This document shows, piece after piece, positions 6,074 through 24,439 of a stretch of DNA of 64,000 nucleotides. The position numbers were made by a program, and so were the translations under genes. The DNA lies in contig JAFYZR010000082.1 in NCBI GenBank assembly GCA_017557345.1, positions 57,315-121,314 of the forward strand, given 5' to 3'. Each line of letters starts with the position of its first letter. The first letter of the stretch is position 1. Source of the stretch: Paludibacteraceae bacterium. Its GTDB lineage: Bacteria > Bacteroidota > Bacteroidia > Bacteroidales > Paludibacteraceae. A model generated the notes under the pieces. It was not told the origin of the DNA and ran no database searches. It saw only the letters and a list, made by a program, of their open reading frames with translations.

Positions 6074-6205
6074 CAACTTTTTCTTGATATACCAAATATT
6101 TTGGGCAAAAAAAATGCAATTTTTTTAAAAAAAACATCATTTTTGTCAATTTGGTGCACTTTTTGTGTGTTTATTCCATATATTTTTAGTAATTTTGCAC
6201 TCGTT

Positions 6206-7238: not shown

Positions 7239-7318
7239 GGCAAAGTGGCAAAGTTGACAATCTTGCTGAAAATGAGCGAATTATCTTGTTTTGAACTTTG
7301 CCACTTTGTCACTTTGTC
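7239..7318. repeat. Inverted pair of tandem 8-mers (GGCAAAGT x2 ... ACTTTGCC ACTTTGTC ACTTTGTC)
   Basis: Left arm 7239-7254 and right arm 7295-7310 pair at 15 of 16 positions around a 40-nt loop. The right arm overlaps the stop codon (7317-7319) of the DUF3987-like gene. Confidence 0.8.
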
Positions 7319-8543: not shown

Positions 8544-8619
8544 AGTTAAAGGTTTTTTTAAGATTAATAATATTTATTTAGTCAGCCCGAGCGGACTGAA
8601 TGTTTTTCAAAATCGAGCA

Positions 8620-8627
8620 CAAAGATA
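8620..8627 (-). promoter_or_regulatory. -7 box TATCTTTG (minus) upstream of the DUF3987-like gene
   Basis: Plus strand CAAAGATA. The same 10-mer ACAAAGATAC recurs at 8693-8702. Confidence 0.4.
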
Positions 8628-8946
8628 CAAAAATATTTTGGAATATGCAAATTTTTGTCCCTCGGTTAGCACGTTCGGTAATGAAAAACGCTACAAAGAT
8701 ACGATGAACATTTGCCTTTTTCCAAATTTTTTTGCAAAAAAATGCACAATTCTTATTCCCTATATATTCACTCTATGTTAACAAGTTTATATCGTCTTCT
8801 GTAAGTTGTTATTGATACACAAATTAGGTTGCAACGCCAACAGGCGTTTACGGCAAGAATTTAGTTGTTCTTTGGTGAGTTTATACTCCTCAAACAAGGT
8901 TAAATTATTGTCTAAATTACGAAACATAGCATTCTTTAAGTTTTAT

Positions 8947-9960
8947 CTATCCGTTCAAACCAATAGTATAGAACTCCATATCGGACATAGTGTAATCAAA
9001 ATCAAAACCACGACGCTCAAATTCATCTCGAATTTCTTGCCACTTTCCTTGATTTACTAATGGATATATTTCTTTGTTAAATTCCACGAAACGCAGTAAA
9101 ATGTCTGTCTTGCCAAGCATACCTAACGACCATACCATAGAACTAATGATAGGGATGTCACAGAGGCTATTATCAGTTATGTGAGGTTGTTTTGACCAAC
9201 GAGGATTGACACGCCAAGGGTTTCTAATATAATAATAGCCGATAGCATTCAATACGTTTTTATAGAATAATTCTTCTGCTTCTTCATCTCGCACAGGTAT
9301 TGATTGACGGGCGCAGAGATAGAGGTAGGCACTATCAGAAAGTTGCTCGCGGTCAATTTCAAAGGACGACGGCAACCGCAGGCGGACTTGAAGATAATTA
9401 TAGTCCTTGGCTAAATCCTGACGGTTATCGAGAACAAAGGATTGTGGGAAATGGTGACAGATGACGCGAGCGGACTCCATCTCATGGTGCTCATGCCATG
9501 CTTTTTCGACAAAAGGTGTGTAATAGTCATCCCAATGGGTGTCCAGATAACGGAGCGCGAACAGACGGTCAACGGAGGCGTTCTCAAAGAATGTACGAAG
9601 AATTTTTTGCTGTTCTTCAAAAGAGACATATGGCACACGTTCTTTGAGAGCCTTACGGGCTTTTATTCGCATTCCTTTCGTATCAAATTCCTTCAACAGT
9701 TGTGCCGTTGTTTTATTACGCGGTGCGGGGTCGAACTGATGGATAGTGCGTTGGTCTGCTTTGGCTTTGTGCTCTACCTGTACGCGAATCCAACTCGGAA
9801 TGCGAAAATTATTAGGCTCCGCAAGAGATTCGTCTTGCAATGACGCAACGAGCGCATAGCGAATTTTATGAGAAGGGCTATACTTTTCATCGTTTTCAAA
9901 TGTATCCCAACCATCCCAGTTGTTTTGCTCGAAAACATTGTTTAATTCATGTGCTGTCAT
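8947..9960 (-). CDS. Hypothetical protein (337 aa)
   Basis: Long ORF 38 nt downstream of the DnaB-like gene on the same strand. No motif recognised. Confidence 0.5.
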   Translation of the reverse strand: MTAHELNNVFEQNNWDGWDTFENDEKYSPSHKIRYALVASLQDESLAEPNNFRIPSWIRVQVEHKAKADQRTIHQFDPAPRNKTTAQLLKEFDTKGMRIKARKALKERVPYVSFEEQQKILRTFFENASVDRLFALRYLDTHWDDYYTPFVEKAWHEHHEMESARVICHHFPQSFVLDNRQDLAKDYNYLQVRLRLPSSFEIDREQLSDSAYLYLCARQSIPVRDEEAEELFYKNVLNAIGYYYIRNPWRVNPRWSKQPHITDNSLCDIPIISSMVWSLGMLGKTDILLRFVEFNKEIYPLVNQGKWQEIRDEFERRGFDFDYTMSDMEFYTIGLNG

Positions 9961-9998
9961 AGAAGTGTTGTTTTAAAAGATGATATATTCGTAGTCAA

Positions 9999-10850
9999 CT
10001 AAAACGGAAGATCAGACGGGGTGGAACCATCCTCTGCAACCCAAAGTTCGTGCTCAGGGTCATATACGCGAGCTGTATGGTGGTCAAACCGAAGCTTCAT
10101 CCCCTCGCAATCGCCCAAGTTATATCCGTATATATACATACATCCACGAATATCTTCACCCGTTCGTTCGTCATTGTATATATGATAATATTCCGGACGA
10201 TATGAGAAGATTATTTTCTGAGCATAATAAGCAAGATCTCCTCCCCAGAAGTCTCCTAATTGAGGTTGTTTTCCTTCAATACCACAACGTTCTTCCGTAT
10301 TGAGATTCAAACCATCAGCCACAACAATGCGGGTATCTAACATATAGGCTAAATCTCTTAATTCACGACACATATATTCTTCAGGAGTCATTCCGGTGCT
10401 TATCAATCTATCGTCAATCACTATATCTTGAAGGCTATCAATAAAGATACAATATGGACTTATCTCGCTTACATCGTCCCATAGTTTCGTTTTGATAGCG
10501 TGAAAATCATCAGCATGGAATAAGTGTGCAAAGTAAAGTGGCACATCTTTTAAGAAGGGGCACGAACACCCCTCTGTCCGACCGACATACCGACTGATTT
10601 TATCCGCTATTTTATGATGAGGATGTGCGTAGTACACAACTCGCTTACCAGCTTTAGCCATTTCAAGCGCCATTGATACCATGAGAGAAGTGCCACCCAT
10701 ACAGGGGTGGGAACCCACAAGAGTTAAATCTTTCTCTAAACTTTCACAGAGGCGCTGAAAACCACCTCGTTTTAGAGATTAGTCAACCTTGTTGGATTCA
10801 ATTCGCTTTGCGTAAGCGTCAACGATAGAATATATTTGTTGCGTTTTCAT
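9999..10850 (-). pseudogene. DnaB-C/RecA-like ATPase gene interrupted by an in-frame TAA
   Basis: ATG at 10850 reads MKTQQIYSIVDAYAKRIESNKVD, then TAA at 10779-10781. The same frame continues SLKRGGFQRLCESLEKDLTLVGSHPCMGGTSLMVSMALEMAKAGKRVVY into the 239-aa ORF. The Walker A position reads GGT instead of GKT. Confidence 0.6.
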
Positions 10851-11638
10851 AATGAGAAAAATGTAGTGTCAGAAGAAATCGTATTGAGCTGGTCATCATA
10901 TTCGCTTGAGGCTTGATATAATAAATACAAATCACCATTCTCATCTACGTGATATCCATAGGTGCCCCAAGCATAACTGCCTTCATACAAGAAATTTGTA
11001 ATGGTTTTATGAGATGAGTCAAATTGTGTATTCGCGTCTACCGAAAAATATGTGGGATCATTAACAGGGATTTTTATGGATAACTCTGAGTCAGTGATGT
11101 CATATATTTCATAGCTTGGGCCGCTTTTAGAACCACCCATGAAAAATCCTAAAAGCAATTCTAATTCACCATCGAAGTCAGCATCGTAGAATTGATATTC
11201 GGCATATGGCAGCAGGGGATTGACCGCATATGCATACGGCTGTGCATTGTAATGGAAAACGTACGAGTCGCCGTTCTTAAAACCGGAGAAATCTCTGGCT
11301 CTTACGATTTCGTATACATTTTTGCTCATAAACAAATTCTTGAAACAATGGCACTTTTCATTCCAATCAGTCCATACATATTCCTTGCCAGATTTTTGGG
11401 AGCGGAAGAAAATGCGTGCGCCATTTTCATATTCACTCCAACCATTCTTCTGCGAGTGATATGGATAGAGAATCCCGCTCACCTCAAAATCATTGATGAT
11501 GGTATCAAAACGGAAGTACACGCTAATAAAACGAGTGTCGTTCTGCAGCGGATTTTTAATTGCCAATTCTTGCACCCAATCATTGCCATATACAGCAAGC
11601 GAGAATATAGCAAATGAGATAAATAAAAAGCGTTTCAT
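10847..11638 (-). CDS. Secreted hypothetical protein with FG-GAP/VCBS-like DADFDGELELL motif
   Basis: Start taken at ATG 11638 (MKRFLFISFAIFSLAVYG signal peptide). Its TGA overlaps the ATG of the next gene (ATGA at 10847-10850). Confidence 0.5.
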   Translation of the reverse strand: MKRFLFISFAIFSLAVYGNDWVQELAIKNPLQNDTRFISVYFRFDTIINDFEVSGILYPYHSQKNGWSEYENGARIFFRSQKSGKEYVWTDWNEKCHCFKNLFMSKNVYEIVRARDFSGFKNGDSYVFHYNAQPYAYAVNPLLPYAEYQFYDADFDGELELLLGFFMGGSKSGPSYEIYDITDSELSIKIPVNDPTYFSVDANTQFDSSHKTITNFLYEGSYAWGTYGYHVDENGDLYLLYQASSEYDDQLNTISSDTTFFSL

Positions 11639-11817
11639 GGAGTTTTTTGTGTATTTAAATACGATGGTGGCAATGCCAACAATAATAATGGCTGCCTTAT
11701 TCATAGTTGTAGTTAGTAAAAAAGTTCGTGAATGGAGTTAAGGTTTAGTCGATAATTTCTATCGATAACCTGGGCTTATTCAAAGATGGTATCCACTTCT
11801 TCATTTAATGTAAATTT

Positions 11818-12681
11818 TTACTTAAAAACAAATGATTCTAATTGTGTCATTACTTCCCAAAATTCTCGTGGAAGACGTAAGCGCATTTCCTCAATGATAT
11901 ATTCAGGAATGTCATCATAGAACGCATGTGCTATTCCGCCTGTGATGCAAGCAAGTGTATCACTATCTCCACCAAGCGAGACCGCTAATCGAATAGCAGA
12001 TTCAAAGTCATGGCTATCAAAGAAAGCTATGAGCGCCGGAGGAACAGTGCCTTGACACGACGCCTCCCAACCATAAGAAGGGCGTATCTCATCGCATGTG
12101 TGATGCAAATCGTAGCCAAACGTTTCCTCAATACTTTCTCGAATCGTTTCTTTTGAATCGCCTCTATGAGCCATCCAGATTGCAACAGCAACAGCCTGCG
12201 CGCCTTTAATACCTTCCGGATGGTTGTGGGTGATTTCAGCAGACCGTTTGCCTAATTCCATTGCATCCCGAAACGTATATGCAGCCCAACCACAAGCGGA
12301 AGCTCGCATGGCAGAACCATTGCCCCAAGAATTATATGGATGCCGTTCTAATGACCTACTATAAGTCATATCTTCACGACTATAATCGGCGAGCAACTGC
12401 GGAGCAAATAACCATCTTGAAAACCCGCCTCCATAGCCCCCCATAGGGCAAGGATACTTCTTTGCCCACGAGACAAGCTTATCTTCCAATGCAGATTGAG
12501 AGCGGTCTGTGCTACTTAACCAATCTGCAACGGCAATAGTCATAATACTATCATCCGTATAGTTAGCCTGCTTGTCAAACAATGGCTGAAAATCCGGAGA
12601 TTTGATATTGTCAAACTCATAAATCGAGCCGACGGTGTCACCAATTAGGGCGCCTAAACAAGGATAATATCGCCATTTCAT
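11818..12681 (-). CDS. ADP-ribosylglycohydrolase family protein (DraG/Tri1/ARH-like)
   Basis: GALIGDTVGS near the N-terminus, GNGSAMR, and a C-terminal GGDSDTLACITGG. These are the characteristic ARH metal-site motifs. The start could also be 12717. Confidence 0.8.
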   Translation of the reverse strand: MKWRYYPCLGALIGDTVGSIYEFDNIKSPDFQPLFDKQANYTDDSIMTIAVADWLSSTDRSQSALEDKLVSWAKKYPCPMGGYGGGFSRWLFAPQLLADYSREDMTYSRSLERHPYNSWGNGSAMRASACGWAAYTFRDAMELGKRSAEITHNHPEGIKGAQAVAVAIWMAHRGDSKETIRESIEETFGYDLHHTCDEIRPSYGWEASCQGTVPPALIAFFDSHDFESAIRLAVSLGGDSDTLACITGGIAHAFYDDIPEYIIEEMRLRLPREFWEVMTQLESFVFK

Positions 12682-12745
12682 ATACGTACTATTATATGAG
12701 CGTGATTTCGGGAACATGTATTTAATTTAAGAGCCAATCGTTGTA

Positions 12746-12782: not shown

Positions 12783-15716
12783 CTATTCATCTTGCTGCAT
12801 TGCTGATAGCCTATAATTACGATGTAATTTTTCTAAAAGGAAAGTCGCTCCACAAACCTTATTTGTACATGCATAATCAAGATCCGACCTTCCGATAATC
12901 ATTTCTAATTTAGATCCACATTGGGGACAATATATCTCATCTCTTTCCAAATGACCTATATGATTTTCAACGGCCCTCTTCAAACTTAGCGGAATAGAAT
13001 CTGGTCTATGCTCTTGCAAAAATGACAACCTACGAGAAAAAACTTGATGTGAACAACATGTTGCACATCGACCGCAGATTACCCATCCATTAGGACACTT
13101 TTTGGTATCACGTTCATCTATCGGTTCCTGACAATCAGGATTAAGGCAATGACTCAAATAAATTTTCAACCCTTTCTTGATACAATTACTGTTTATGCAC
13201 TCATAATGCGAAGATACGGACACCCCAAGATTCGTCAATCCCATTGATGGCATCATTAACCGACCGCACTCTCTACAGAATAAATGCTTAGCAAATTGAT
13301 TAAATCGGTTAATCAACGTAACAAATTTAAGATATTTACCATTAACGCACCGATGTCCAGCATAGTCTACTTCACTCATATCGAACCCCATTATATGACA
13401 GAAGTCATACATAGTGTACTCTTTCCAATCTGAGTGAAAAACCAATCTGTTTTTAGCGCAATAAGTGTTACGACACCAATAGCGTGTATTCCCCATTTCG
13501 TCTTTTTTCTCTAGTTCTCTCCCCTCGCAAAATATTACCCCATGTGGTCTTCCATAATTTCTTTCTATTCTTCTTTTTCCTATATACTTCCCTCTATCAT
13601 CATATTCATCTTTATATTTTCTCCATTCGATTCCTCCGCACTCGTCAAAGAGTTGGTAAATAAGAGGATGTGACCGTTCTCTAAAATCCTCGTTTGTTAA
13701 ACTAGTTAACAACAACGATAAAATATCACGCTCAACAAAAAACTCTTTCCGAACTTGGAATTTAAGCATCGCTTCAATCACAAGATCTACATCAAAACAT
13801 ACATGAATTTGCTTGTTATTGTGCTGCAACTGTTGATTTTTAGAAGTCAAGACTAGTAATGGCTCAAGTGATTTTGAGATAAAATTACTCTCCATCAAGT
13901 AAAAGATGTAGCGCAGGATTTTAACTTGTTCATATTCGGAAAACAAATAGAAATACTTCGAAAGTTGGTCAAATTCAATTTTTTTATCTTCCGAATCAAC
14001 TTTTACATAATTTTCATACCACTCTATGACAGATAAATATTCACTATCATGTTTTGGAACATTAAATTTAATATCTAATTCTTTGAACTTTCGCAATAGC
14101 AAGTAATCAAAAGCAAAACGTTCCTCTGACATGTCTTTAGTGGATTCTAATTTGGAAATATACCAATCATGCATAATCTCCTCGGCAAGATTTTTATCTA
14201 TATAGCCAAATTTGAACCATTCATTAAGCCCCCTTATAGGATCCTGATTATCGTTCAACATCATGCGAAGCCACTCATCTTTTGAGGGAGCAGGAACAAT
14301 TTCACATCTCCATAACTTCACATATTTCCCATCAACAACTTTTTTTGTTTCCTGAATAATATCATCTACTAGTTGAGACATACTCGTTTCCCATCTGTTC
14401 ATATGCGCGCAAGCGGAACTTCCGTCCCAACCTGAATGTTCCCTCAAAATAACAGCGCACGCTTTTACAACAAGTTTTGCTTCCTCTATATGAGTGTTGT
14501 AAAATTGAACAATGGTATCATCATCACAATTTTCTAGCGTTTTAACAATAGCTTCATCACTAATTCTATCCCTAAGCGACAAGTCAAAATTAGAGATGTA
14601 AAGCCAAGCTTTTTCCTCGTCCTCTAAATCTGCATACTGAGAAGCATAACAATCGCGGAAACGCGAACATGTCATCTCAGCAACATTATGGCTTTCCATC
14701 GCCATTATGAATTCTGCATCATTTCTGTAATCACCAGTAAAGAAAGCTTCTACTGCTTTGGCTTTCACAACAAAATCTTCTATCTGTTCAATGATACCTA
14801 ACAATATCTCCTTATGCGTGAAGAAGGAATGAAAAATATGGACTAACTTGTTTGACTCTATATCGGGTAAAATATATTTTGAGAGGCATAACAAGAAATT
14901 CGCATTAATTTCGTCAGATTGTCCTAAAGATTTTACCTTAACCAAAGTTTTGCAACATTGTTCAAATGTATAATCAGCTTCACACTCAAGTAGATAAGGC
15001 TTAGTATCGAGCAGAATATCTGCATAATCCCCAGATTTAGCCCAGTGAACGGTAGAATACGATTGCAATGCCCGAACTAGCGCAGAAGAAGCAATTTTTC
15101 TATAGCCGATATCACCTTTCCAAAAATGTTCAAAAATAAATGTAAAACCATCTTCCTCTTTAGGATGTCGAACCATATAGGCTGTCATCCTTCCTTTTCT
15201 CTTGTCAATTGCAGCCTTGTAAAATACCAAGTCGCCATCAATTATAGTTTCACCCTCTTGGCAATTATTTACATGATAAAAGCATTCGTCCCCATTCTCG
15301 TTTTTTACTAGCCCATAAACTTGATAACCATAGTGTCCATCCCTGAATAGTTGAACGATACCATACGAAAAAGGCACGTCTTTAAGCCAGCTCTCATTAC
15401 TATCCCTAACATATCGAAAACAAGGATTATTTTTCTCATCTTTGTCACGATGCTTACTTTCCAATTGAGAATTGGATTGCACGACAACTTTTGGAATTAT
15501 TTTTCCATAAGCGTTAGTAACGGTTTCGAATCTCACACCATCAACGCCTTTGTCATCGATATTTTTAAACTGTTGCTCTAAGCGTGAGTACAAATCATCA
15601 GACAGCCTATAATTTGGATCACTTTCAACTTCAAAGCCATTGCTCTCACACCACTGCGTTAGAGTAGACATCCCAATGTTTAACTCCTTACATGCTTTTA
15701 TTAGTTTTACAGCCAT
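12783..15716 (-). CDS. Large uncharacterised protein: IF2-N-like HTH, cold-shock-like barrel, helical core, four C-terminal zinc ribbons
   Basis: Start at ATG 15716 (MAVKLIKACKELNIGMSTLTQWCESNGFEV). YGIVQLFRDGHYGYQV...DGDLVFYKAAIDKRKGRMTAYMV is CSD-like. C-terminal Cys pairs: CRNTYC, CRECG...ECINSNC, CLNPDC...CPNGWVICGRCATCC, CPQCG...CTNKVC. Confidence 0.6.
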   Translation of the reverse strand: MAVKLIKACKELNIGMSTLTQWCESNGFEVESDPNYRLSDDLYSRLEQQFKNIDDKGVDGVRFETVTNAYGKIIPKVVVQSNSQLESKHRDKDEKNNPCFRYVRDSNESWLKDVPFSYGIVQLFRDGHYGYQVYGLVKNENGDECFYHVNNCQEGETIIDGDLVFYKAAIDKRKGRMTAYMVRHPKEEDGFTFIFEHFWKGDIGYRKIASSALVRALQSYSTVHWAKSGDYADILLDTKPYLLECEADYTFEQCCKTLVKVKSLGQSDEINANFLLCLSKYILPDIESNKLVHIFHSFFTHKEILLGIIEQIEDFVVKAKAVEAFFTGDYRNDAEFIMAMESHNVAEMTCSRFRDCYASQYADLEDEEKAWLYISNFDLSLRDRISDEAIVKTLENCDDDTIVQFYNTHIEEAKLVVKACAVILREHSGWDGSSACAHMNRWETSMSQLVDDIIQETKKVVDGKYVKLWRCEIVPAPSKDEWLRMMLNDNQDPIRGLNEWFKFGYIDKNLAEEIMHDWYISKLESTKDMSEERFAFDYLLLRKFKELDIKFNVPKHDSEYLSVIEWYENYVKVDSEDKKIEFDQLSKYFYLFSEYEQVKILRYIFYLMESNFISKSLEPLLVLTSKNQQLQHNNKQIHVCFDVDLVIEAMLKFQVRKEFFVERDILSLLLTSLTNEDFRERSHPLIYQLFDECGGIEWRKYKDEYDDRGKYIGKRRIERNYGRPHGVIFCEGRELEKKDEMGNTRYWCRNTYCAKNRLVFHSDWKEYTMYDFCHIMGFDMSEVDYAGHRCVNGKYLKFVTLINRFNQFAKHLFCRECGRLMMPSMGLTNLGVSVSSHYECINSNCIKKGLKIYLSHCLNPDCQEPIDERDTKKCPNGWVICGRCATCCSHQVFSRRLSFLQEHRPDSIPLSLKRAVENHIGHLERDEIYCPQCGSKLEMIIGRSDLDYACTNKVCGATFLLEKLHRNYRLSAMQQDE

Positions 15717-15737
15717 AGTATAAGCGTATTTCAAGAA

Positions 15738-15833
15738 TTATATAGCACCTATATATACAAAATTTGCGTGATATGTTACTAATGTTTTACGTTCATCCCA
15801 AAACGCTACTTCATATTTATCAAAGTATGCCAT
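15738..15833 (-). pseudogene. 31-codon stub of a BspA-type LRR gene
   Basis: MAYFDKYEVAFWDERKTLVTYHANFVYIGAI then a stop. The first 57 nt match the 5' end of the 15856..17277 gene at 48 of 57 positions (my own count). Confidence 0.6.
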
Positions 15834-15855: not shown

Positions 15856-17277
15856 TTACAAGATTTGATTTTTGTTCCTACTTTCTAATTCAAAGTAACA
15901 TTCCTTTGTCGCAAGGATATCTGAAAGAGCATCGTGAGCATCATCAAAATTGCGATTAAACAATTTAAGATATAGTTCTTGTAGTGTGGGCCATTTATAA
16001 CCGCCATAGTACGAATTAGGATTGGGGATCGCGCAAAAGTTCATGGAATTTTTCATTGTGCAGATAGATGATTTTTTAAATAGCGAATCATAGTCCAATC
16101 CCAAACGATATAATTCTGCGCATACAATATGAAGATCAAAATCAACATTATGCCCCACGATCTTCTCCGCACTTTCTAGATCTTTCATGAATTCCTCTAG
16201 AACCAAGCGCAATGGCCAACCTTCTCGCTTTGCTCGTTCGGTTGTTATCCCATGCACTTCTGAGGCTTCGTCTGGGATATTGAAGCCTTCCGGATATATG
16301 ATTGCCGATTTACGTTTAAGTTCAATTCCATCTTCATCCACCAGCAACCATGCTAATTGCACTAAACGCGGCCAATTATCCGAGTCTTTAATAGGAGCAT
16401 TGTAGTTGTGAGGAAGCCCAGCTGTCTCGGTGTCAAAGAAAAGGTATTTTGGTTGAGAGGTGGAGACTTTCTCATTACTCAATGCCTTCGCGTCATAACA
16501 ATAGATATCATCCTCTCCTTCACACGAAAAAACAATCAATTCAATAGATGCAGGATCTACTTTATCTCCTTCTTTAAGTTCGCTTCGAGTTGATAACGGC
16601 CAATAAATAGGCTCGCGTCTTTTTTTTATATGGGCTTCTAATGCAAGCCGGTCATCATAATTATTCTCATCATTGTGAATATCTTTCTTCACTCTAACTT
16701 CTACATATTCAATCATAGCGAGAATGTCTTCTGGAATATTTTCTCTTGCGACTTCCTCCCAGACTTTGCTCTCCGCATCTTCTTCAACTAAAATATCACG
16801 AAAATCCTTCAAACCATCCATCTCTGCAAAACGAGCATATTGGCCTTTGGGTATACGGATTTCTTTTAGCCCTTTACAACCCGTAAAGGCGCCTTCTCCA
16901 ATGTGTGTGACACTATTATGAAGAATTACACTTGTTATACCGGAGCAATAATCTCCTGTGTTAACGGCATGAGTGTGAGCCACAATAATAACCGGCTGGT
17001 AGCAATATGCGAACGCAACCTCTCCTATATTAGTTATGCTATCAGGTATCACTATACTTTTTAGCCCTTTGCACCCCATAAAAGCTCCATCTTCTATACA
17101 AATGACGCTGTCGGGAATAATCACATCTGTCATCCTAAAACAACCTTCGAAGGCGCATTCTCCAATCCTTGTAACGCTGCTTGGGATAGTATATTCACCT
17201 TGAAAGTCTTTAGGGCATCGAACTAATGTTTTTAGATCATCCGAAAACTCTACTCCATATTTATCGATGTATGCCAT
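15856..17277 (-). CDS. Fusion protein: N-terminal BspA-type leucine-rich repeats + C-terminal DEDDh (DnaQ/epsilon-like) 3'-5' exonuclease
   Basis: LRR units have the form IPxSVxxIGxxAFxGCxxL (x4). Exonuclease motifs: YLFFDTETAG (ExoI), GHNVDFDLHIV (ExoII), AHDALSDILAT (ExoIII, DEDDh type). No signal peptide. Confidence 0.75.
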   Translation of the reverse strand: MAYIDKYGVEFSDDLKTLVRCPKDFQGEYTIPSSVTRIGECAFEGCFRMTDVIIPDSVICIEDGAFMGCKGLKSIVIPDSITNIGEVAFAYCYQPVIIVAHTHAVNTGDYCSGITSVILHNSVTHIGEGAFTGCKGLKEIRIPKGQYARFAEMDGLKDFRDILVEEDAESKVWEEVARENIPEDILAMIEYVEVRVKKDIHNDENNYDDRLALEAHIKKRREPIYWPLSTRSELKEGDKVDPASIELIVFSCEGEDDIYCYDAKALSNEKVSTSQPKYLFFDTETAGLPHNYNAPIKDSDNWPRLVQLAWLLVDEDGIELKRKSAIIYPEGFNIPDEASEVHGITTERAKREGWPLRLVLEEFMKDLESAEKIVGHNVDFDLHIVCAELYRLGLDYDSLFKKSSICTMKNSMNFCAIPNPNSYYGGYKWPTLQELYLKLFNRNFDDAHDALSDILATKECYFELESRNKNQIL

Positions 17278-17278
17278 T

Positions 17279-18139
17279 TTACCAATATATAGGTTCTTTA
17301 ATATTTTTTTCTATTATACCTAAATTCATCAGTTTTTTCTTCAAACTTTCATTTTCGCCGTCAGCATGATAATATATAGTCCAGTCCGCAGCATTGATAT
17401 CATGATTGACTTCAATTATCTTCTCCATGTATGGCTTGTCAATCTCGTTCAAAGAAAATCCCATAATGATGAAGTGCTTGATATTAGTGTACTTCTGAAA
17501 AGTTTCATTGTGGAGTTCTATAATTCCTGTTACATTTTTAGCTCCTTTTTCTATTTCTTGATTTATACTATCAATATTTGGATAAAGAAGTTCGTGCGCA
17601 GCCCTACTATCCTCTGCATGTTTCATTAATTTAACGTAATTTGCGCCATGACCTACTATAATAGCGTGTTCATCCTTAGCGAAGTCTATGACAGAGTTAT
17701 GTATATGGCAAATGTTATCTGCGTTGATATTGTATGATTTTTCTAACAGTAATGTATAGTTGAAGGTAAAATACAAAGATGAATTGTTGATAATATCTAA
17801 TAAGGGATGAAAATTAACGTTGATGTTACTATTTACAGATTTAATCCAATTCCCAAAGAACAGAGGCAGGTTCCTAACTAAATTTTGGACTTTATATGGA
17901 GCCATAGCTTCACCATTGTGCGAACGAATAAGATTCAAATAATTTACCTTTCCGAGCATCTCCTCAAAGTTACACCACCACATTTCATCTTTTATATTCT
18001 CATAGCCATAGATATCAACTAAGTAAGATTTTAAAGTAGCATTCCCTTGTACATGAGCATCTCTAAAATCTGAATATTTCGTCGGAAGCTCATGCTTAAG
18101 GTCAAATCCATTCCCAATTATGTATAGAGTATCCTTCAT
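17279..18139 (-). CDS. AbiH-family abortive-infection protein
   Basis: Start at ATG 18139 gives MKDTLYIIGNGFDLKHELPTKYSDF, the characteristic AbiH N-terminal signature. Its TAA (17279-17281) lies 1 nt from the ATG (17277) of the LRR-exonuclease gene. Confidence 0.7.
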   Translation of the reverse strand: MKDTLYIIGNGFDLKHELPTKYSDFRDAHVQGNATLKSYLVDIYGYENIKDEMWWCNFEEMLGKVNYLNLIRSHNGEAMAPYKVQNLVRNLPLFFGNWIKSVNSNINVNFHPLLDIINNSSLYFTFNYTLLLEKSYNINADNICHIHNSVIDFAKDEHAIIVGHGANYVKLMKHAEDSRAAHELLYPNIDSINQEIEKGAKNVTGIIELHNETFQKYTNIKHFIIMGFSLNEIDKPYMEKIIEVNHDINAADWTIYYHADGENESLKKKLMNLGIIEKNIKEPIYW

Positions 18140-18222: not shown

Positions 18223-19242
18223 TTACTCTCTTGTAATGTGGCTGAAAAAATTGTGCCAATCTATTTCGTCATTGTTATTAGCTAAACGGTAGTATTTTCT
18301 AAGTAATTGGTTTAGTTGTAGTGCATATTCAGCATTGAGCTCGTTATTCTCTAATATTTTCTTGGGCTCGTTCATGAAAGCCCCATATAATTCTTGCTTT
18401 CTTTTATGTTCCTTTTCAATAGTGGAAATGAGGGACGATATTCGTTCATTTAATAGGAATCGTCGATGATTATCTCTATTATATTTTGTTTTTGCTGCAT
18501 TAATATACTTTTGTTCTTCATCAATATAGGTTCTTTCTTGCATTGATTTATCTGCACCTATAATTCTCATGCTAGATGCCGCGCAAAATCCATGATCTCT
18601 ATATATTTTCTCGTCTATTTTCGGGAATAGCGAGTTTATATAACCATCATTGAAAACCTTTGATTTTTTATGAACAAAATACCAATCATCTTTCCCAGGA
18701 CAATTTTTAAAATGCTCCTCATTAATAATTGTAAATGAGTTCAAAATTTGTTCTATGTCAAGTTTATTAATATAACTTTCAACGTCATCTATTACCTCTC
18801 CTAAGGTAGGCAAAGATTGTTTTATAAAATATGTTCGAATGAGTTCTCTTTCTTGCTCTGTGTATCTCCAATCAACATAAACATCACTTCCGTTATTACA
18901 ATATATAATAAATTGGTATCCGCTACCACTATCTACAATAAACTTTGAACTTTTTGCTATACATTCTTTTGGAACACAAATACCATTTTCTTCCTTATAT
19001 AGAATCTCGTCATAGTTACTATATCTATGCAAGGAATTATCGTAGTAGTCGAAATCTTTCAAACCAATTATATATCTAGCTCTATCAGATTTGGAATCTT
19101 CAAATAAGATAGTATCGAGCAGCTGAAACTTTTCTGGCAAATTAGCGTCAGCAACACGAAATGTTCCATCAAGACATATAATAATCCCATTTTTTGAGTT
19201 GCTCAACAACACGCCAACTCTTAAGTTCTTTCGTCCTTGCAT
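18223..19242 (-). CDS. Hypothetical protein (339 aa), very AT-rich
   Basis: Long ORF, co-directional, 37 nt after the Sel1 gene and 83 nt before AbiH. No domain recognised. Confidence 0.5.
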   Translation of the reverse strand: MQGRKNLRVGVLLSNSKNGIIICLDGTFRVADANLPEKFQLLDTILFEDSKSDRARYIIGLKDFDYYDNSLHRYSNYDEILYKEENGICVPKECIAKSSKFIVDSGSGYQFIIYCNNGSDVYVDWRYTEQERELIRTYFIKQSLPTLGEVIDDVESYINKLDIEQILNSFTIINEEHFKNCPGKDDWYFVHKKSKVFNDGYINSLFPKIDEKIYRDHGFCAASSMRIIGADKSMQERTYIDEEQKYINAAKTKYNRDNHRRFLLNERISSLISTIEKEHKRKQELYGAFMNEPKKILENNELNAEYALQLNQLLRKYYRLANNNDEIDWHNFFSHITRE

Positions 19243-19279: not shown

Positions 19280-21295
19280 TTACTCAAACACATTCATTCC
19301 TTCCGGTTGCCAGAGAATGCGAGTGCGGGAGAGATGGATGATATAGGGTTGAGTCTTTTTGCCAACAGGGATATAATCTTCCGGAGAATCTTCGTAGTCT
19401 TGCAAAGCGGCTTCAAAGGCTTTGCGGATACGAGAAAGTTTCTCATTGGCAGAGTTATTCGTTGGATCTATCAGTGTTTCAATACTTTGTGTGGTATCTA
19501 TTCGATTAGACAAGGTATTATACCATTGTTGCAACTCTTCCTTATAATCGCTAAGATACTTGATAGCAATACCTTCTGTATGATGAAGTAGCGTAAAATA
19601 GAGCGCCTTGGATAATATAGGCATCTTGATTTCCGCTGTCAACTTATTTCCTGTACTATCAATAAGGAATAGTTTGTATTTCTCGTCCACTAACAACATA
19701 GTGTCGTGCGGAAGGGATTTCTTCATTCGCATCTTAACGAAAGGCAATGTTCCCACAAACTGGACCAAATAGGAGAATGCCTTCTCCCAATTGGTGCCTG
19801 GTGTGAACGGAAACAAAATATATTCATAGTTAAAGTTATCTTCTGGATTACTCCTGTTTGGCTTGAAGCGCAAGAAGCCAGCGCAATCAGCTGGCAGATG
19901 TTCTTCTGAGAACAATGCTGACCAATAATAGAACTCTGTTTTTTTGTCTCTATCTAACCAAACACGCATCATTTGTTGCGGCTCATAGTCCCCGGAATAC
20001 GAACTAATGATATCTTCTGCACTCTGTGCGCGAGTAGGCAAATAAACAAAAAGATAGTCCTTGCGACGGAAAGCAGCACGGAGTTGACCGAGATGTTGCT
20101 GAATGTATTGGTTCAACTCGGAGTGAACATTCTTCTCCAAGAAGATAAGTTCATGTTGATTACCCATGATGCGTGGGTCGCGTATTTGCACATCATAAAT
20201 AGGAAAAACAAAATCATCATGCGGATACTTTACTTCAGATTTAAGCGGAACTAAAGATTTTGTTTTAGTAGCCTTATGTTCTTCGATATCTTTTTGGGAA
20301 ATCTCGGGGCTATTATCCGGCAACCAGCGTGGTGGTTGTTCGGTGTTAGAAGGAATGGTTGTAGCAGGAGAAACGTGGTTGTCACAAAAAATAGAATCTA
20401 ATTCTGGAGCATGATATTGAGCGACAGCCCGTTTGATGCGATCTTCCAAAGAAAGGGTTAATAGCGCCTTACAGGAATCATAGTTGTCCAATGATTCTTT
20501 TGCTCCTATATTAGAGATTGCGTTTTTCCATTCCGGGTCATGGTTAACCTCACGTTTGGCCTGTTCAAAGAGGGAAAGAGCCGTATGGAAATAGTTCGCC
20601 ATTACATACATTACACCTAAATTATTATATGCGAAGTAATTCTTGTGCTCCTTAATTAAGCGACGATAGAAATAAGCAGCTTTGTTATAATCAATCGGGG
20701 TAAATGTGCCGTGCTCATAACTAATGGCCATATTCATCATGCCTATTTCTTCACCCAATTCGGCACCTTTCTCTATCCATTCACGACCTTTTTCTGTTTT
20801 GCCGCTTAACAATAATAGTACTCCGCAAGCCACCATTCCCTCTTTAATCCCGTGTTGTGCAGCCAATCGGAAATAATTGAATTGCTCTTGACTACTATCT
20901 TCCAACGAGCCTAATAGTGTGTACGCGCCATATTTCTTATATATTTTAGCCAGGCGCAAAAGATCTCTCTGGAGCATCTCTAATAATTCAGGGTCTCCAT
21001 CTTTGAGAGCCAAATTATCATAGTTAGTGAGCGCTTCCCAAAATGCCGAATCTTTTTTATAAGAAGCGGCATCAATAATACCGGTGAACTTGGTAAATTC
21101 TTTCAGTGGCTTCGTATCAACAGGATATTGCCATGTGATAAAATCCGGACCAATGCGATAAAATGTATATAGAGGGAGAAGGCGCGCACGAGAATCGACT
21201 TCCTCAACCGCTACTGGGTTTGAAGAAGTGGTGGTATTAGAATCTTCCGTATGTTTACCGAAGAATACCCTTTTTATGTTGTCGAAAAGTGACAT
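19280..21295 (-). CDS. Sel1-like repeat protein with a large uncharacterised C-terminal half
   Basis: Sel1/TPR-like units (AAQHGIKEGMVACGVLL..., MMNMAISYEHG..., AYNNLGVMYVM) in residues ~130-260. Residues ~330-671 carry no motif I recognise. Confidence 0.6.
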   Translation of the reverse strand: MSLFDNIKRVFFGKHTEDSNTTTSSNPVAVEEVDSRARLLPLYTFYRIGPDFITWQYPVDTKPLKEFTKFTGIIDAASYKKDSAFWEALTNYDNLALKDGDPELLEMLQRDLLRLAKIYKKYGAYTLLGSLEDSSQEQFNYFRLAAQHGIKEGMVACGVLLLLSGKTEKGREWIEKGAELGEEIGMMNMAISYEHGTFTPIDYNKAAYFYRRLIKEHKNYFAYNNLGVMYVMANYFHTALSLFEQAKREVNHDPEWKNAISNIGAKESLDNYDSCKALLTLSLEDRIKRAVAQYHAPELDSIFCDNHVSPATTIPSNTEQPPRWLPDNSPEISQKDIEEHKATKTKSLVPLKSEVKYPHDDFVFPIYDVQIRDPRIMGNQHELIFLEKNVHSELNQYIQQHLGQLRAAFRRKDYLFVYLPTRAQSAEDIISSYSGDYEPQQMMRVWLDRDKKTEFYYWSALFSEEHLPADCAGFLRFKPNRSNPEDNFNYEYILFPFTPGTNWEKAFSYLVQFVGTLPFVKMRMKKSLPHDTMLLVDEKYKLFLIDSTGNKLTAEIKMPILSKALYFTLLHHTEGIAIKYLSDYKEELQQWYNTLSNRIDTTQSIETLIDPTNNSANEKLSRIRKAFEAALQDYEDSPEDYIPVGKKTQPYIIHLSRTRILWQPEGMNVFE

Positions 21296-21575: not shown

Positions 21576-22061
21576 TTATGGTTTGAGCGGGTTGGAGCAG
21601 GAGATATAAAAGAATGAACGCATTTGTTTGAGGATGGCTCTGCAAGAGACATCAATATCTTGGTAAGCTGCTTCGAAATCGCCTGTGTACCACGGATCTG
21701 CCACATCTCTGTTTTCGCCTGTCCATTGCATCATCAGCGATACTTTGCCGTCTGTATCTTCTCCGATAAGACGAGTCAGCCAGCGGATGTTTGACCGGTC
21801 GGCGCAAATGATATAATCAAAGTAATCATAATCGGCACGCGTTATTTGTCGTGCAGTATGGAAATCAAACGGAATGCCTTTTTCGCGCAGTTTGCGTTTT
21901 GCCGGAGGATAAATATCATTACCTATCTCTTCGGTTGAAACGGCAGCAGAAGCGATTTCCAGATTCCCTATTTTGGCTTGACGGCATAATTCTTTCATCA
22001 CCATTTCCGCCATCACCGAACGGCATATGTTGCCGTGACATATGAATAGGATTTTACTCAA
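21576..22061 (-). CDS. Low-molecular-weight protein-tyrosine phosphatase
   Basis: ILFICHGNICRS is the CX5R(S) P-loop at the N-terminus, and a DPWY-type Asp loop is present. Confidence 0.9.
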   Translation of the reverse strand: MSKILFICHGNICRSVMAEMVMKELCRQAKIGNLEIASAAVSTEEIGNDIYPPAKRKLREKGIPFDFHTARQITRADYDYFDYIICADRSNIRWLTRLIGEDTDGKVSLMMQWTGENRDVADPWYTGDFEAAYQDIDVSCRAILKQMRSFFYISCSNPLKP

Positions 22062-22903: not shown

Positions 22904-24439
22904 TTAACGTGCTTTTGGCACCAAGGTTACCAGCGGAATGATCATTTCTTCGAGCGAAATACCACCATGCTGGAACGTATTGCGGTAGTATTGCGCGTAG
23001 TAATTAAACTGATTAGGATAGGCAAAGAAATCAGAACCGGTACAAAAAGCATAACTGCTGCTTACATTCGGGCAAGGAAGACCGATTCGTTTCGGTTGTT
23101 CGATACTCATTACGTTCTTTGAACTGCAGTTAAGCGCTTTACCCACTTTATAGCGGATGTTGGTATTGGTATTCTTATCAGCAATAATCTGTACGGCATT
23201 CTTCACACGCGTTGTGCCATGATCGGTTGTCAGCACCAAGGTAAAACCTAATTCAGACGCACGACGCAGCAAATCATAAGTAGGCGAGTGCTTAAACCAA
23301 CTAAGCGTCAAACTCCGATATGCCGATTCATCATTAGCCAACTCACGCATCATTTTACTTTCCGTGCGTGAGTGAGAGAGCATATCAATAAAATTGAAAA
23401 CAACAATATTGAGTGGAGTCTGTACGCCTTTTAATTGAGCAATTACGCGCTCGCAAAAATCACTCTCGTTTACTTTCCAATAATTGAAACTCTCGCGTCT
23501 GCGATATCGATCCAATAGTGTTTGTACGAGTTCTTTTTCATATTGATTCTTGCTCTCTTCATCACCTTCTTCAACCCAATATTGCGGATACATCTCTTGA
23601 ATCTGTAATGGTAGCAGACCAGAGAAAATAGCATTTCTGGCATACTGCGTAGCCGTAGGCAATATACTTGTATATTGCTCCTCGTTGCTTATGGTGTAGA
23701 ATTCGCTAATGAGCGGTTGGATAGTTTTCCATTGGTCATAACGGAAATTATCAATCACACAAAGTAATACTTTCTCTCCTTTATCCAACAAAGGAAAGAC
23801 AGTATGCTTCATTACATCGTGAGACATAACAGGCCTGTTCTCCGCGCCAAACCAGCCTTCGTAATTCTTTGCAATCCATTTTGCAAAGGCTGCATTGGCT
23901 TGCGTGCGTTGGTCGTCTATTAAAGAACGCATCGAAGAATTTTCTAATTCGATATCCCAACGGCTCAATGTGCGCTCAATTGCTTGCCATTCCTCTATCG
24001 TGCTTGCCGTATCAATCATATAGGAGATATCACTCCATTCTTGACGATAGTTCTGTTGTACTTGCTCTGTGACAATCGCTTGTTGGTGAATATGTTTCTT
24101 AAGGCACAAGAGAATTTGACTTGGATTAACAGGTTTGATGAGATAATCGGCTATCTTTTCTCCTATAGCCTGCTCCATGATATGTTCTTCTTCGCTTTTG
24201 GTAATCATCACCACCGGCACTTCAGGATGCAAACGTTTGATTTCCTGTAACGTCTCAAGTCCTGTCAGACCGGGCATATTTTCATCTAAAAAAACGATAT
24301 CGGGCACGGCATCAGCCAATGCATCTATTGCATCTTCGCCATTGCTGGCGGTTACTACCTCGTAGTTTTTACCTTTTAGGTAAATGATATATGGTTGTAA
24401 CAAATCTATTTCGTCATCAACCCAGAGTATTAGGTTCAT
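22904..24439 (-). CDS. porX: PorX-type response regulator (REC + PglZ/alkaline-phosphatase-like domain)
   Basis: N-terminal receiver domain (ILWVDDE...DENMPG...KS) followed by a ~350-aa PglZ-like domain. Length 511 aa, comparable to Porphyromonas PorX. Confidence 0.75.
   Translation of the reverse strand: MNLILWVDDEIDLLQPYIIYLKGKNYEVVTASNGEDAIDALADAVPDIVFLDENMPGLTGLETLQEIKRLHPEVPVVMITKSEEEHIMEQAIGEKIADYLIKPVNPSQILLCLKKHIHQQAIVTEQVQQNYRQEWSDISYMIDTASTIEEWQAIERTLSRWDIELENSSMRSLIDDQRTQANAAFAKWIAKNYEGWFGAENRPVMSHDVMKHTVFPLLDKGEKVLLCVIDNFRYDQWKTIQPLISEFYTISNEEQYTSILPTATQYARNAIFSGLLPLQIQEMYPQYWVEEGDEESKNQYEKELVQTLLDRYRRRESFNYWKVNESDFCERVIAQLKGVQTPLNIVVFNFIDMLSHSRTESKMMRELANDESAYRSLTLSWFKHSPTYDLLRRASELGFTLVLTTDHGTTRVKNAVQIIADKNTNTNIRYKVGKALNCSSKNVMSIEQPKRIGLPCPNVSSSYAFCTGSDFFAYPNQFNYYAQYYRNTFQHGGISLEEMIIPLVTLVPKAR

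Follow-up and report, generated by a model that had tools for sequence, protein, structure and literature searches.

The window, a 64-kb stretch of a gut or rumen Paludibacteraceae (Bacteroidales) chromosome, was analyzed around a co-directional block of minus-strand genes. In this block, an abiH-family gene is followed by a gene encoding a leucine-rich-repeat (LRR) protein with an exonuclease domain. The features of the block are given below in the direction of reading, with the evidence for each.

19280-21295, minus strand: first gene of the co-directional block, encoding a 671-aa Sel1-repeat protein, here called the anchor (Sel1 repeats at residues ~117-231)
18223-19242, minus strand: 339-aa ORFan between the anchor gene and abiH (found only in contigs of the same strain)
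17279-18139, minus strand: abiH-family gene, 286 aa (full-length Pfam AbiH match, invariant residues, AF2, Foldseek)
17277-17281, minus strand: gene junction, with the AbiH stop TAA at 17281-17279, one spacer base at 17278, and the ATG of the LRR-exonuclease gene from 17277 (direct reading)
15856-17277, minus strand: LRR-exonuclease gene, 473 aa (Pfam LRR_5 and RNase_T)
16783-17277, minus strand: LRR region, residues 1-165 (LRR_5, family alignment, AF2 beta-solenoid)
16453-16782, minus strand: middle domain, residues ~166-275, mixed alpha/beta, without family assignment (AF2, relatives)
15856-16452, minus strand: DEDDh (DnaQ-like) 3'-5' exonuclease domain, residues 276-473 plus stop (RNase_T, PADLOC DEDDh, phrog_192, Foldseek)
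15738-15833, minus strand: 31 codons (MAYFDKYEVAFWDERKTLV...) left from the 5' end of a further LRR_5 gene (translation, direct repeat)
12783-15734, minus strand: downstream 983-aa ORFan with a Cys-rich C-terminus (sub-threshold zinc-ribbon match only)

AbiH, the LRR-exonuclease, and their putative operon

The 286-aa AbiH protein, read from the ATG at 18139, matched Pfam AbiH (PF14253; cut-off, 30.9 bits) over the entire profile (positions 1-260 of 260; E = 3e-41, 142.7 bits) and, more weakly, the PADLOC AbiH model (3.4e-15). A TTG start at 18259, which adds 40 residues, overlaps the upstream gene, and the ATG was preferred. The ATG is the better start because all homologues begin 4-5 residues before the LYIIGNGFD motif and because the identical protein at NCBI (P0121, annotated as an AbiH family protein, from a Paludibacteraceae MAG) is 286 aa long. 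The conserved motifs are LYIIGNGFD (residues 5-13), FNYT (residues 126-129, with N127), and H147. In an alignment of 20 sequences with 29-83% identity, the window protein had all 34 invariant columns, including LYIIGNGFD, FNYT, the downstream His, and GH. With all invariant residues present, it is a full-length member of the family of the Lactococcus lactis abortive-infection gene ("AbiH" in DefenseFinder and PADLOC). The clade of the window protein is the shortest, at 278-288 aa; known AbiH proteins have ~300-350 aa.

The AF2 model of AbiH (pLDDT 93.9, pTM 0.90) was compared with known structures using Foldseek. The best matches were the defense SIR2 domains of DSR2, KomC, FAM118B, ThsA, and SPARSA, with DSR2 at the top, and almost all of the ~40 top PDB matches were SIR2 domains. 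The scores (probability, 0.85-1.0; E, 2.4e-3 to 1e-1; TM, 0.40-0.46) were consistent but weak. Judged from the model, AbiH is a compact SIR2-like (SIRim-type) protein. This agrees with the SIR2-like character reported for lactococcal AbiH (PMC13064643); the SIR2-like fold and the motifs have a further source (10.1101/2024.09.18.613514). By Pfam and AF2, the 286 residues correspond to the SIR2-like core only, with no separate sensor region. A fusion ("Rosetta stone") search with the profile against 1.84 billion representatives yielded 10,003 AbiH-family proteins. None of the best 150, which were inspected, was fused to LRRs; four were extended, with GT4 or zf_Tbcl as the extra domain.

The 473-aa product of the next gene matched LRR_5 (PF13306; 2.3e-24, 86.1 bits, cut-off 27.7) and RNase_T (PF00929; 5.4e-12). 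Its LRR region consists of a conserved N-terminal cap (MAYxDKYGVEFSDD.KTL), four clean 23-residue BspA-type units, and one degenerate unit (residues 100-118, pLDDT ~29 in AF2). It was modeled as a beta-solenoid with pLDDT of ~90 save at residues 100-112. By eye, no hydrophobic, signal-like segment is seen at the N-terminus (MAYIDKYGVEFSDD...), which is acidic and polar and is conserved across the family as MAYFDKYGVEFSDD. A C-terminal sorting domain was likewise not seen, by eye, in the family. Repeats of the same family occur in the BspA-type LRR_5 proteins found on the surface of Bacteroidota. In their classical form, BspA-like proteins are adhesins, either secreted or displayed on the surface, whereas the LRR-exonuclease family lacks signal peptides and sorting domains and has a cytoplasmic-looking cap and enzymatic heads. 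The middle domain (pLDDT 45-80) was common only to P0035, P0005, and P0002 and to the 35 C-terminal residues of a kinase-LRR protein adjoining AbiH in locus L121; in most family members, a coiled-coil or Sel1 linker takes its place.

The exonuclease domain has the motifs YLFFDTETAG (residues 279-288), GHNVDFD (375-381), and AHDALSD (447-453). In an alignment of 25 family members, the catalytic residues D282, H448, and D453 were invariant, and E284 and D381 were nearly so; three Cys residues (C406, C415, and C460) are also conserved. From these residues the DEDDh exonuclease is predicted to be catalytically intact. The domain matched phrog_192 (6e-37), and its best PADLOC model was the CRISPR-associated "DEDDh" (PDLC01247; 4.4e-26). 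The match to the PADLOC candidate PDC-S48 (E 1.9e-9) was limited to the exonuclease portion, positions 4-128 of the 411-position profile, and did not span the whole candidate protein. The domain was modeled with pLDDT of >90 and had 172 PDB matches at E <= 1e-3, the best 50 of which were all DnaQ/DEDDh-type exonuclease domains. The best fold match was 8h2f, the CRISPR DnaQ domain of S. thermophilus (E 3.5e-9, TM 0.79 on target), followed by ExoI, PolC, DinG, TREX1/2, and RNase T. The modeled fold thus appears to lean toward DNA-acting enzymes (DnaQ, ExoI). In CRISPR systems, the DEDDh domain is fused to Cas2 (Cas2-DnaQ), while in the window it is fused to LRRs instead. A CRISPR association was rejected, as neither cas genes among the proteins scanned nor a CRISPR-like array in the 64-kb window was found.

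The junction is not an assembly artifact because the identical AbiH and LRR-exonuclease pair was also present on two further metagenome contigs (L081 and L082). Judged from the spacing only, the two genes may be co-transcribed and translationally coupled. A scan for sigma-70 promoters and terminators at 11.5-22.2 kb gave counts at or below the shuffled expectation. The sigma-70 consensus is not of the Bacteroidota type; Bacteroidota promoters do not follow it. The remnant of another LRR_5 gene begins 22 nt past the LRR-exonuclease stop and was also present in L081 and L082. Its first 56 nt and those of the LRR-exonuclease gene form a direct repeat (86%; 15778-15833 versus 17222-17277). The 983-aa ORFan, which also follows the LRR-exonuclease gene in L082, lies in a stretch of low GC content (0.33-0.38 versus ~0.42) and had no PDB relative. 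The 339-aa ORFan had no match in Pfam, NCBIfam, PADLOC, PHROGs, or PDB. For these two proteins and the anchor, PDB sequence searches and four HMM libraries returned nothing beyond the Sel1 repeats and the sub-threshold zinc-ribbon match. The original prediction had described a one-nucleotide junction and, in the downstream protein, about four BspA-type LRR units, a complete ExoI/II/III DEDDh exonuclease, and no signal peptide; all of these descriptions agree with the present results.

LRR proteins as neighbors of AbiH

Of 15 dereplicated loci in the AbiH clade of the window, 11 encoded an LRR_5 protein within two genes of AbiH, often overlapping it or only a few nucleotides away, and the other 4 had no detectable LRR partner. 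The partners were LRR-only, LRR-transmembrane (LRR-TM), Ser/Thr kinase-LRR, and LRR-exonuclease proteins. Other AbiH clades had an LRR partner in 0 of 17, 2 of 14, and 0 of 7 loci and similar, and as a negative control, none of 75 prophage or IMG-VR AbiH loci had an LRR neighbor. In 80 metagenomic AbiH loci, LRR genes were found at position -1 in 10 of 69 cases, at +1 in 3 of 70, at +2 in 3 of 54, and at -2 in 1 of 56. Taken together, 17 of 249 genes at ±1-2 encoded LRR proteins, compared with 1 of 374 at a distance of 3-8 genes (Fisher OR 27, p 1.4e-6). An independent Pfam count of 137 immediate AbiH neighbors gave LRR_5 (11), Pkinase (8), Sel1 (3), and WG_beta_rep (3), none of which was among the families with at least two members in 145 control neighbors (±4/5). 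LRR_5 genes are abundant in such islands and often stand in tandem, which could inflate the co-occurrence.

The arrangement differed among loci. An LRR-TM gene was located at +1 of AbiH with a 20-nt overlap in L089 and L091, with an LRR-exonuclease gene three genes further on in L089. An LRR-only gene was found at -1 with a 14-nt gap in L097-L104, and a Pkinase-Sel1-LRR_5 gene at +1 with a 7-nt overlap in L105-L112; gene order is variable, the LRR gene being upstream of AbiH in some loci and downstream in others. The partner kinase domains matched defense kinases (PADLOC STK_OB, 3.9e-43; PD-T4-6), and the neighborhoods carried DarT, AbiE, DUF1016, and mobile-element genes, surroundings with which a defense role is compatible. 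The window, L088, and L089 share the 669-671-aa anchor and, after it, AbiH, but differ in the downstream partner; in L088, an 82%-identical AbiH is followed by a 476-aa gene with weak LRR_5-like similarity (hhalign probability 57%). The original prediction had raised the concern that the pair might be unique to one genome. The exact adjacency was indeed confined to the window strain, but there are near-equivalents: in L095, AbiH is followed by an 82-aa TM protein and then an LRR-exonuclease, and in L148, the AbiH stop is overlapped by 29 nt by the gene for a 945-aa WG_beta_rep+RNase_T (DEDDh) protein, a second repeat+DEDDh fusion.

The recurrent link is between this AbiH clade and LRR proteins in general, not between AbiH and an LRR-DEDDh protein. 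The exonuclease, which the original prediction took as a plausible effector, is unlikely to be "the effector" because AbiH neighbors LRR_5 proteins whose non-LRR part varies; AbiH, itself SIR2-like in the model, is more likely to be the effector. Our preferred reading, to which we give not quite an even chance, is that AbiH and the LRR-exonuclease form one module of a defense-island operon, consisting of a SIR2-like effector, a swappable cytoplasmic LRR sensor or adaptor, and an optional exonuclease head.

LRR-exonucleases away from AbiH and alternative readings

The LRR+DEDDh architecture is not rare; it was present in at least 120 protein clusters (all 120 best-listed clusters carried both domains). 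Its genes sit in variable, defense- or mobile-element-like islands. The original prediction had called the pairing of AbiH with an LRR-DEDDh architecture unfamiliar. The pairing was not found described in the literature on AbiH with LRRs or Bacteroides and on LRR_5 with exonucleases. The architecture itself is common, and the pair is not a conserved unit. As to whether AbiH is enriched beside LRR+DnaQ-like fusions, a check that the original prediction had proposed, AbiH was absent from 8 of 8 independently sampled contexts seeded from LRR-exonuclease proteins. LRR-exonuclease genes can therefore function without AbiH. In one of these contexts (L083), a different SIR2-family gene (PADLOC Aga_SIR2, 1.6e-17), which best matched pAgo-associated SIR2 models, occupies the AbiH slot of an operon that ends with an LRR-exonuclease gene. 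The exonuclease is not a housekeeping paralogue, a possibility that had been raised at the outset, although its domain often occurs as stand-alone homologues in phages and across many phyla. The 80 best viral matches covered only the ~190-aa exonuclease domain and had no LRR part, and no AbiH was found near stand-alone exonuclease genes in 80 genomic and 80 viral loci.

The absence of AbiH from all eight contexts argues for a serious rival reading, which we regard as quite possible: that AbiH and the LRR-exonuclease are two independent single-gene defense genes packed into a compact co-directional island operon, AbiH acting alone and the LRR-DEDDh protein acting alone with its own targeting domain, similarly to the ISG20-like TONDO proteins, which bear auxiliary domains. 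AbiH is documented as a one-gene system, the gene from Lactococcus and a homologue from Vibrio each protecting alone (PMC13064643; 10.1101/2024.06.14.598830), and this counts against a module. In addition, the closest LRR-exonuclease relatives of the window protein, P0005 and P0035, do not adjoin AbiH, and the 56-nt repeat indicates that the cassette arrived by recombination. A preprint describes TONDO and ISG20-like exonucleases as DEDDh proteins with a variable auxiliary domain or gene, in defense or mobile contexts, that can defend alone and act on the 3' ends of RNA phages (PMC13344964). The LRR-exonuclease resembles them in this composition; in the part of the preprint consulted, no LRR-bearing example is described. 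ISG20 was not among the 50 best fold matches of the exonuclease domain, and a phmmer search of PDB sequences (E <= 0.01) for ISG20 homology gave only weak matches to TREX1 chains. Against independent genes, however, LRR genes are concentrated at ±1-2 of AbiH rather than island-wide, a pattern specific to one AbiH clade; many independent pairs overlap or lie very close together; and AbiH is retained while its LRR neighbor is swapped.

A second alternative, which we consider improbable, is that the functional unit is a larger operon with the anchor as its core, comprising the anchor, a SIR2-type gene, variable genes, and the LRR-exonuclease. The anchor is 68-92% identical across loci and is followed by variable cassettes; its homologues head L083, L088, L089, and L090. 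It precedes AbiH in the window, L088, L089, L090, and L092, and the different SIR2 gene in L083. Its C-terminal ~110 residues recur in proteins of the AbiH loci L129 and L142, and members of its family share longest-contig sizes with an LRR-exonuclease cluster (95,188 bp) and an AbiH cluster (50,076 bp). However, most AbiH-LRR pairs (L095, L097-L112, and L114-L127) have no anchor, the anchor family is small (~45 clusters, none named), and one constant gene with changing cassettes after it would be expected of an integration hotspot just as well.

It is very improbable, in our estimate, that the LRR-exonuclease is not antiviral but cargo of a mobile element or conflict island (in DNA processing, anti-defense, or interbacterial conflict), its contact with AbiH being incidental. 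The island does contain DUF3987, DnaB_C-like, XAC2610-related, and Tri1-like ADP-ribosylhydrolase genes, LRR-exonuclease genes elsewhere head long co-directional ORFan arrays near rve, DUF3987, and topoisomerase genes, and the closest relatives of the exonuclease domain are the stand-alone ~190-aa proteins common in phages. By contrast, the LRR-exonuclease lacks any domain for secretion or trafficking, there is no evident toxin/immunity pairing, AbiE, DarT, SIR2, and DUF1016 genes are frequent neighbors, and the positional link between LRR proteins and AbiH stands. A polymorphic-toxin/immunity-array reading of the LRR family, prompted by the conserved N-terminus, the variable C-terminus, the downstream ORFan arrays, and the XAC2610-like and Tri1-like genes nearby, was set aside as a minor rival because of the missing secretion or trafficking domain and because DEDDh is not a typical toxin module.

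The proposed AbiH-LRR module

In the preferred reading of AbiH and the LRR-exonuclease as one module, the two proteins would interact physically and protect the cell against phage. The LRR solenoid would be the recognition or adaptor subunit, binding a phage component and gating AbiH. AbiH, once activated, would most likely destroy NAD+ or ADP-ribosylate a target, by analogy with DSR, ThsA, and SPARSA. The other domain of the LRR protein would be interchangeable (none, a membrane tail, a Ser/Thr kinase, or a DEDDh exonuclease). In the window, the DnaQ-like 3'-5' exonuclease would contribute a further activity directed at nucleic acids, most likely at the 3' ends of phage DNA. LRR partners would be exchanged by recombination, and the 5'-end remnant downstream may be the scar of such an exchange.

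This arrangement has parallels in known SIR2 systems. In DSR1 and DSR2, binding of a phage protein (the tail tube for DSR2) to a repeat-rich sensor region turns on the NADase of an SIR2-type effector. In DSR2, a helical-repeat sensor and SIR2 are joined in one ~1000-aa polypeptide, whereas in the window the putative sensor is encoded separately, as an LRR protein that has a catalytic domain of its own. Thoeris ThsA/ThsB, SIR2-HerA, and SPARSA (short pAgo-SIR2) are two-gene systems in which the SIR2 effector depends on a separately encoded partner; in the window, that partner is an LRR protein, and no TIR, SLOG, HerA, APAZ, or pAgo component was found. We further propose, as a doubtful generalization, that in one AbiH clade target recognition has passed to cytoplasmic LRR proteins, which are encoded by separate, rapidly swapped genes and have their own catalytic heads or membrane tail. 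Such a system would combine LRR recognition with a NAD-consuming SIR2 effector and would diversify when LRR genes exchange cassettes at their conserved 5' end.

To our knowledge, AbiH has for 30 years been listed as a one-gene defense with no known trigger or mechanism. Known AbiH is a one-gene system, but the window's clade is habitually flanked by an LRR_5 protein, and these neighborhood data suggest that this clade may not be a single-gene system. The AbiH and LRR pairing suggests that a known defense gene has a two-gene version not described so far. If AbiH and the LRR-exonuclease are independent, the finding is an ordinary defense island. The analysis also draws attention to cytoplasmic LRR-DEDDh proteins as a large family, so far unstudied, in islands of gut and rumen Bacteroidales. 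An AbiH clade that reliably travels with LRR proteins would provide a candidate sensor and a route to the activator of a SIR2-type effector. In animals and plants, LRRs are the classic module by which the immune system recognizes pathogens; in bacteria, as far as we know, there is little documentation of LRRs as cytoplasmic sensors. If AbiH and the LRR protein do work as a pair, this would extend the parallel with LRR-based immunity in animals and plants.

The AbiH gene and its LRR-exonuclease neighbor

All genes called in this region of the window lie on the minus strand, including the pair under study:

17279-18139, minus strand, AbiH-family ORF (ATG at 18139, TAA at 17281-17279; 286 aa)
17278, minus strand, single-base spacer, read directly from the sequence
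15856-17277, minus strand, LRR-exonuclease ORF (ATG at 17277, end at 15856; 473 aa)

The 286-aa product covered the whole profile of Pfam PF14253 (E 3e-41). A mechanical alternative start, TTG, is located at 18259; the ATG at 18139 was preferred because all homologs start 4-5 residues ahead of LYIIGNGFD and because an identical NCBI protein (P0121, "Paludibacteraceae bacterium") is 286 aa long. The second product matched LRR_5 (2.3e-24) and RNase_T (5.4e-12) in Pfam as well as the PADLOC DEDDh model (4.4e-26). The catalytic residues D282, E284, D381, H448, and D453 were invariant or nearly so in an alignment of 25 family members, and no hydrophobic segment was found at the N-terminus. Both proteins are also present on two other metagenome contigs. 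Since junction, domain matches, motifs, N-terminus, and the two extra contigs agree, the original prediction of a one-nucleotide gap followed by an LRR/exonuclease fusion with three exonuclease motifs (all found) and no signal peptide is confirmed.

The predicted model of the LRR-exonuclease (pLDDT 80.7) comprised three parts:

aa 1-165, LRR solenoid, confident in the model, with one degenerate repeat at 100-118
aa about 170-275, middle domain, moderate model confidence
aa 278-470, exonuclease domain, confident in the model

The top fold match of the exonuclease was the Streptococcus thermophilus CRISPR-associated DnaQ domain (8h2f, TM 0.79 on target), followed by the ExoI, PolC, and DinG exonuclease domains, TREX1/2, and RNase T. 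By sequence, similarity to solved structures was weak (TREX1, E about 1e-3); the strongest family match was phrog_192 "DNA polymerase exonuclease subunit" (6e-37).

Distribution of the fusion and of AbiH partners

The LRR_5+RNase_T fusion family is large (at least 120 clusters), and both domains were present in 120/120 of the best-listed clusters. Its members share an N-terminal cap, MAYFDKYGVEFSDD.KTL, and a well-conserved exonuclease domain including three conserved cysteines; repeat number varies, and the linker is coiled-coil, Sel1, or, as in the window protein, small globular. The exonuclease also has stand-alone relatives of about 190 aa that share 40-55% identity with the window's domain. 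These occur in many bacterial phyla, among them Patescibacteria, Bacteroidota, and Elusimicrobia, and in a few archaeal MAGs (comparison loci L002-L056 and L193-L272). They are very common in viral contigs, including phage contigs and giant-virus MAGs. AbiH was found near none of 160 stand-alone exonuclease loci, and in none of eight independent contexts sampled from LRR-exonuclease proteins (L001, L039, L083, L086, L353, L357, L359, and L361). Because 0/8 contexts carry AbiH, the specific pair is not a conserved unit and is instead a strain-level arrangement. The window's DnaQ-like exonuclease has intact catalytic residues and also circulates independently of AbiH.

The eight islands were variable, with other LRR_5 paralogs, long co-directional ORFan arrays, and defense/mobile-type genes such as AbiEi/AbiEii, DUF1016, AAA_14/DUF4143, DUF3987, and rve. 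L353 and L361 come from two different genomes, yet in both the island follows LytTR, two unnamed genes, and a Transgly gene, marking one shared hotspot. The cargo differs: AAA_14/DUF4143 in L353 versus LRR_5, DUF1810, and AbiEi/AbiEii in L361.

We also examined AbiH itself. ORFs were called in 80 metagenomic loci recovered by the AbiH profile, and LRR genes were detected with phmmer.

LRR genes by position relative to AbiH (LRR genes/genes scored)
-2: 1/56
-1: 10/69
+1: 3/70
+2: 3/54
3-8 genes away: 1/374

LRR genes were concentrated within two genes of AbiH (Fisher OR 27, p 1.4e-6). A Pfam scan of 137 immediate neighbors gave LRR_5 (11), Pkinase (8), Sel1 (3), and WG_beta_rep (3), none of which was among the families matched by at least two of 145 control neighbors (±4/5). 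The clade of the window's AbiH (278-288 aa; grouped by single linkage at ≥40% identity) comprised 15 dereplicated loci whose neighbors were visible, and 11 of them had an LRR or exonuclease partner at most two genes away; other clades gave 0/17, 2/14, 0/7, and so on, and viral contigs 0/75 loci. The AbiH-LRR association is clade-specific. The arrangements were as follows:

L088 (AbiH 82% identical to the window's): anchor (homolog of the window's 671-aa Sel1-repeat protein), AbiH, 476-aa protein of weak LRR-like similarity
L089, L091 (56%): AbiH, followed with a 20-nt overlap by an LRR_5 protein that has a coiled coil and a TM helix at its C-terminus; in L089, an LRR-exonuclease three genes further on
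L095 (46%): AbiH, 82-aa TM protein, LRR-exonuclease
L097-L104 (46%): LRR-only protein (284 aa), 14 nt, AbiH
L105-L112 (44%): NusG-like gene, AbiH, Pkinase-Sel1-LRR_5 (7-nt overlap), DUF6939, DarT

The partner kinase of L105 matched defense kinase models (STK_OB, 3.9e-43; PD-T4-6). The L105-L112 operon is conserved (e.g., L105:5403-12424: NusG/UpxY-like, AbiH, 894-aa Pkinase-Sel1-LRR_5, DUF6939, DarT, and a 271-aa protein) and borders a glycosyltransferase and acyltransferase region in many gut-metagenome contigs. Partner architectures across AbiH loci include LRR-only, Pkinase+LRR_5, Pkinase+Sel1, and WG_beta_rep+RNase_T. The last, a 945-aa DEDDh protein overlapping the AbiH stop by 29 nt (L148:3544-6381), is a second, independent repeat-plus-exonuclease partner.

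The best-supported reading, which we favor tentatively and at close to even confidence, is that the AbiH proteins of this clade act together with a neighboring cytoplasmic LRR protein. AbiH would be the constant SIR2-like effector. What stays constant in the partner is its LRR part, which is therefore likely the recognition or adaptor element, whereas a second domain would be optional, a DnaQ-like exonuclease in the window. Against this reading count the validation of AbiH as a single-gene defense in other bacteria (PMC13064643; 10.1101/2024.06.14.598830), the variable AbiH/LRR gene order, and the lack of AbiH-LRR fusions among the best 150 of 10,003 AbiH-family representatives. The main alternative, that the two genes are independent neighbors, is somewhat less likely. 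Simple co-residence in an island fits poorly with the tight spacing and with an enrichment that depends on position and on AbiH clade.

The surrounding island

The pair sits in a low-GC stretch (0.33-0.38 versus about 0.42, roughly 12.5-19.5 kb). Its co-directional block runs from the anchor through a 339-aa ORFan, AbiH, the LRR-exonuclease, and an LRR remnant to a 983-aa ORFan, followed on the same strand by Tri1/DraG-like ADP-ribosylhydrolase, XAC2610-related, DnaB_C-like, and DUF3987 genes:

22904-24439, T9SS PorX, housekeeping flank
21576-22061, low-molecular-weight phosphatase, housekeeping flank
19280-21295, minus strand, anchor, 671-aa Sel1 protein
15738-15833, minus strand, 31-codon LRR_5 gene-start remnant, 22 nt after the LRR-exonuclease stop
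12783-15734, minus strand, 983-aa ORFan
10847-12717, minus strand, XAC2610-related and Tri1/DraG-like ADP-ribosylglycohydrolase genes, downstream of the pair
7317-10718, minus strand, DUF3987 and DnaB_C-like genes
6101-6967, rhomboid, housekeeping flank

The 983-aa ORFan has a helix-rich N-terminal part, a possible cold-shock-like stretch at about 140-187 (PDB E of only 0.77), and a C-terminus rich in cysteine (DNA_ligase_ZBD, E 0.003); among the fetched loci, homologs were found only in the same strain. The XAC2610-related assignment is a sub-threshold NCBIfam match, and the product is 52% identical to that of a gene near the L086 LRR-exonuclease. Some members of both the XAC2610-related and the Tri1/DraG-like families confer immunity to interbacterial toxins. 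The DUF3987 and DnaB_C-like genes suggest that the island belongs, or once belonged, to an integrated mobile element; the window showed neither an integrase nor a tRNA. Elsewhere in the window, a 3134-aa ORF (32750-42154, plus strand) presumably encodes a giant surface protein; it contains at least five Flg_new (Listeria-Bacteroides repeat) domains.

The first 56 nt of the remnant (15778-15833) repeat, in direct orientation and at 86% identity, the start of the LRR-exonuclease gene (17222-17277). Remnant and repeat look like a recombination scar, left by cassette exchange or by deletion between tandem LRR paralogs, and would fit an exchange of cassettes at the 5' end that LRR genes conserve.

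The anchor belongs to a family of about 45 clusters, all unnamed, and is 68-92% identical elsewhere; homologs head L083, L088, L089, and L090, while the genes behind it vary, with AbiH, another SIR2, and LRR variants among them. AbiH is kept in the window, L088, and L089 with differing LRR-type neighbors; in L083, a different SIR2-family protein takes the place of AbiH, and the last gene of the operon encodes an LRR-exonuclease. This 364-aa protein (L083:2336-3430) carries the motifs GAGFS...LNHD...LHGS and matched SIR2_2 (9.6e-5) and PADLOC Aga_SIR2 (1.6e-17); a precomputed Pfam table gave no match. The C-terminal approximately 110 residues of the anchor recur in smaller proteins of AbiH loci L129 and L142. 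A larger system centered on the anchor is unlikely. Least probable is a non-defense role for the LRR-exonuclease.

Relation to known defense systems

The searchable literature describes AbiH as a one-gene system (PMC13064643), and neither LRR_5-DEDDh proteins nor a pairing of AbiH with an LRR protein were found in it. DEDDh defense exonucleases with auxiliary domains were just recently reported (PMC13344964); they belong to an ISG20-like lineage, different from the window's DEDDh domain. The AbiH-LRR association is statistically clear and testable, and its function we infer entirely. What is new is best filed as a SIR2-type defense whose partner, a repeat protein, is swappable and encoded by a gene of its own.
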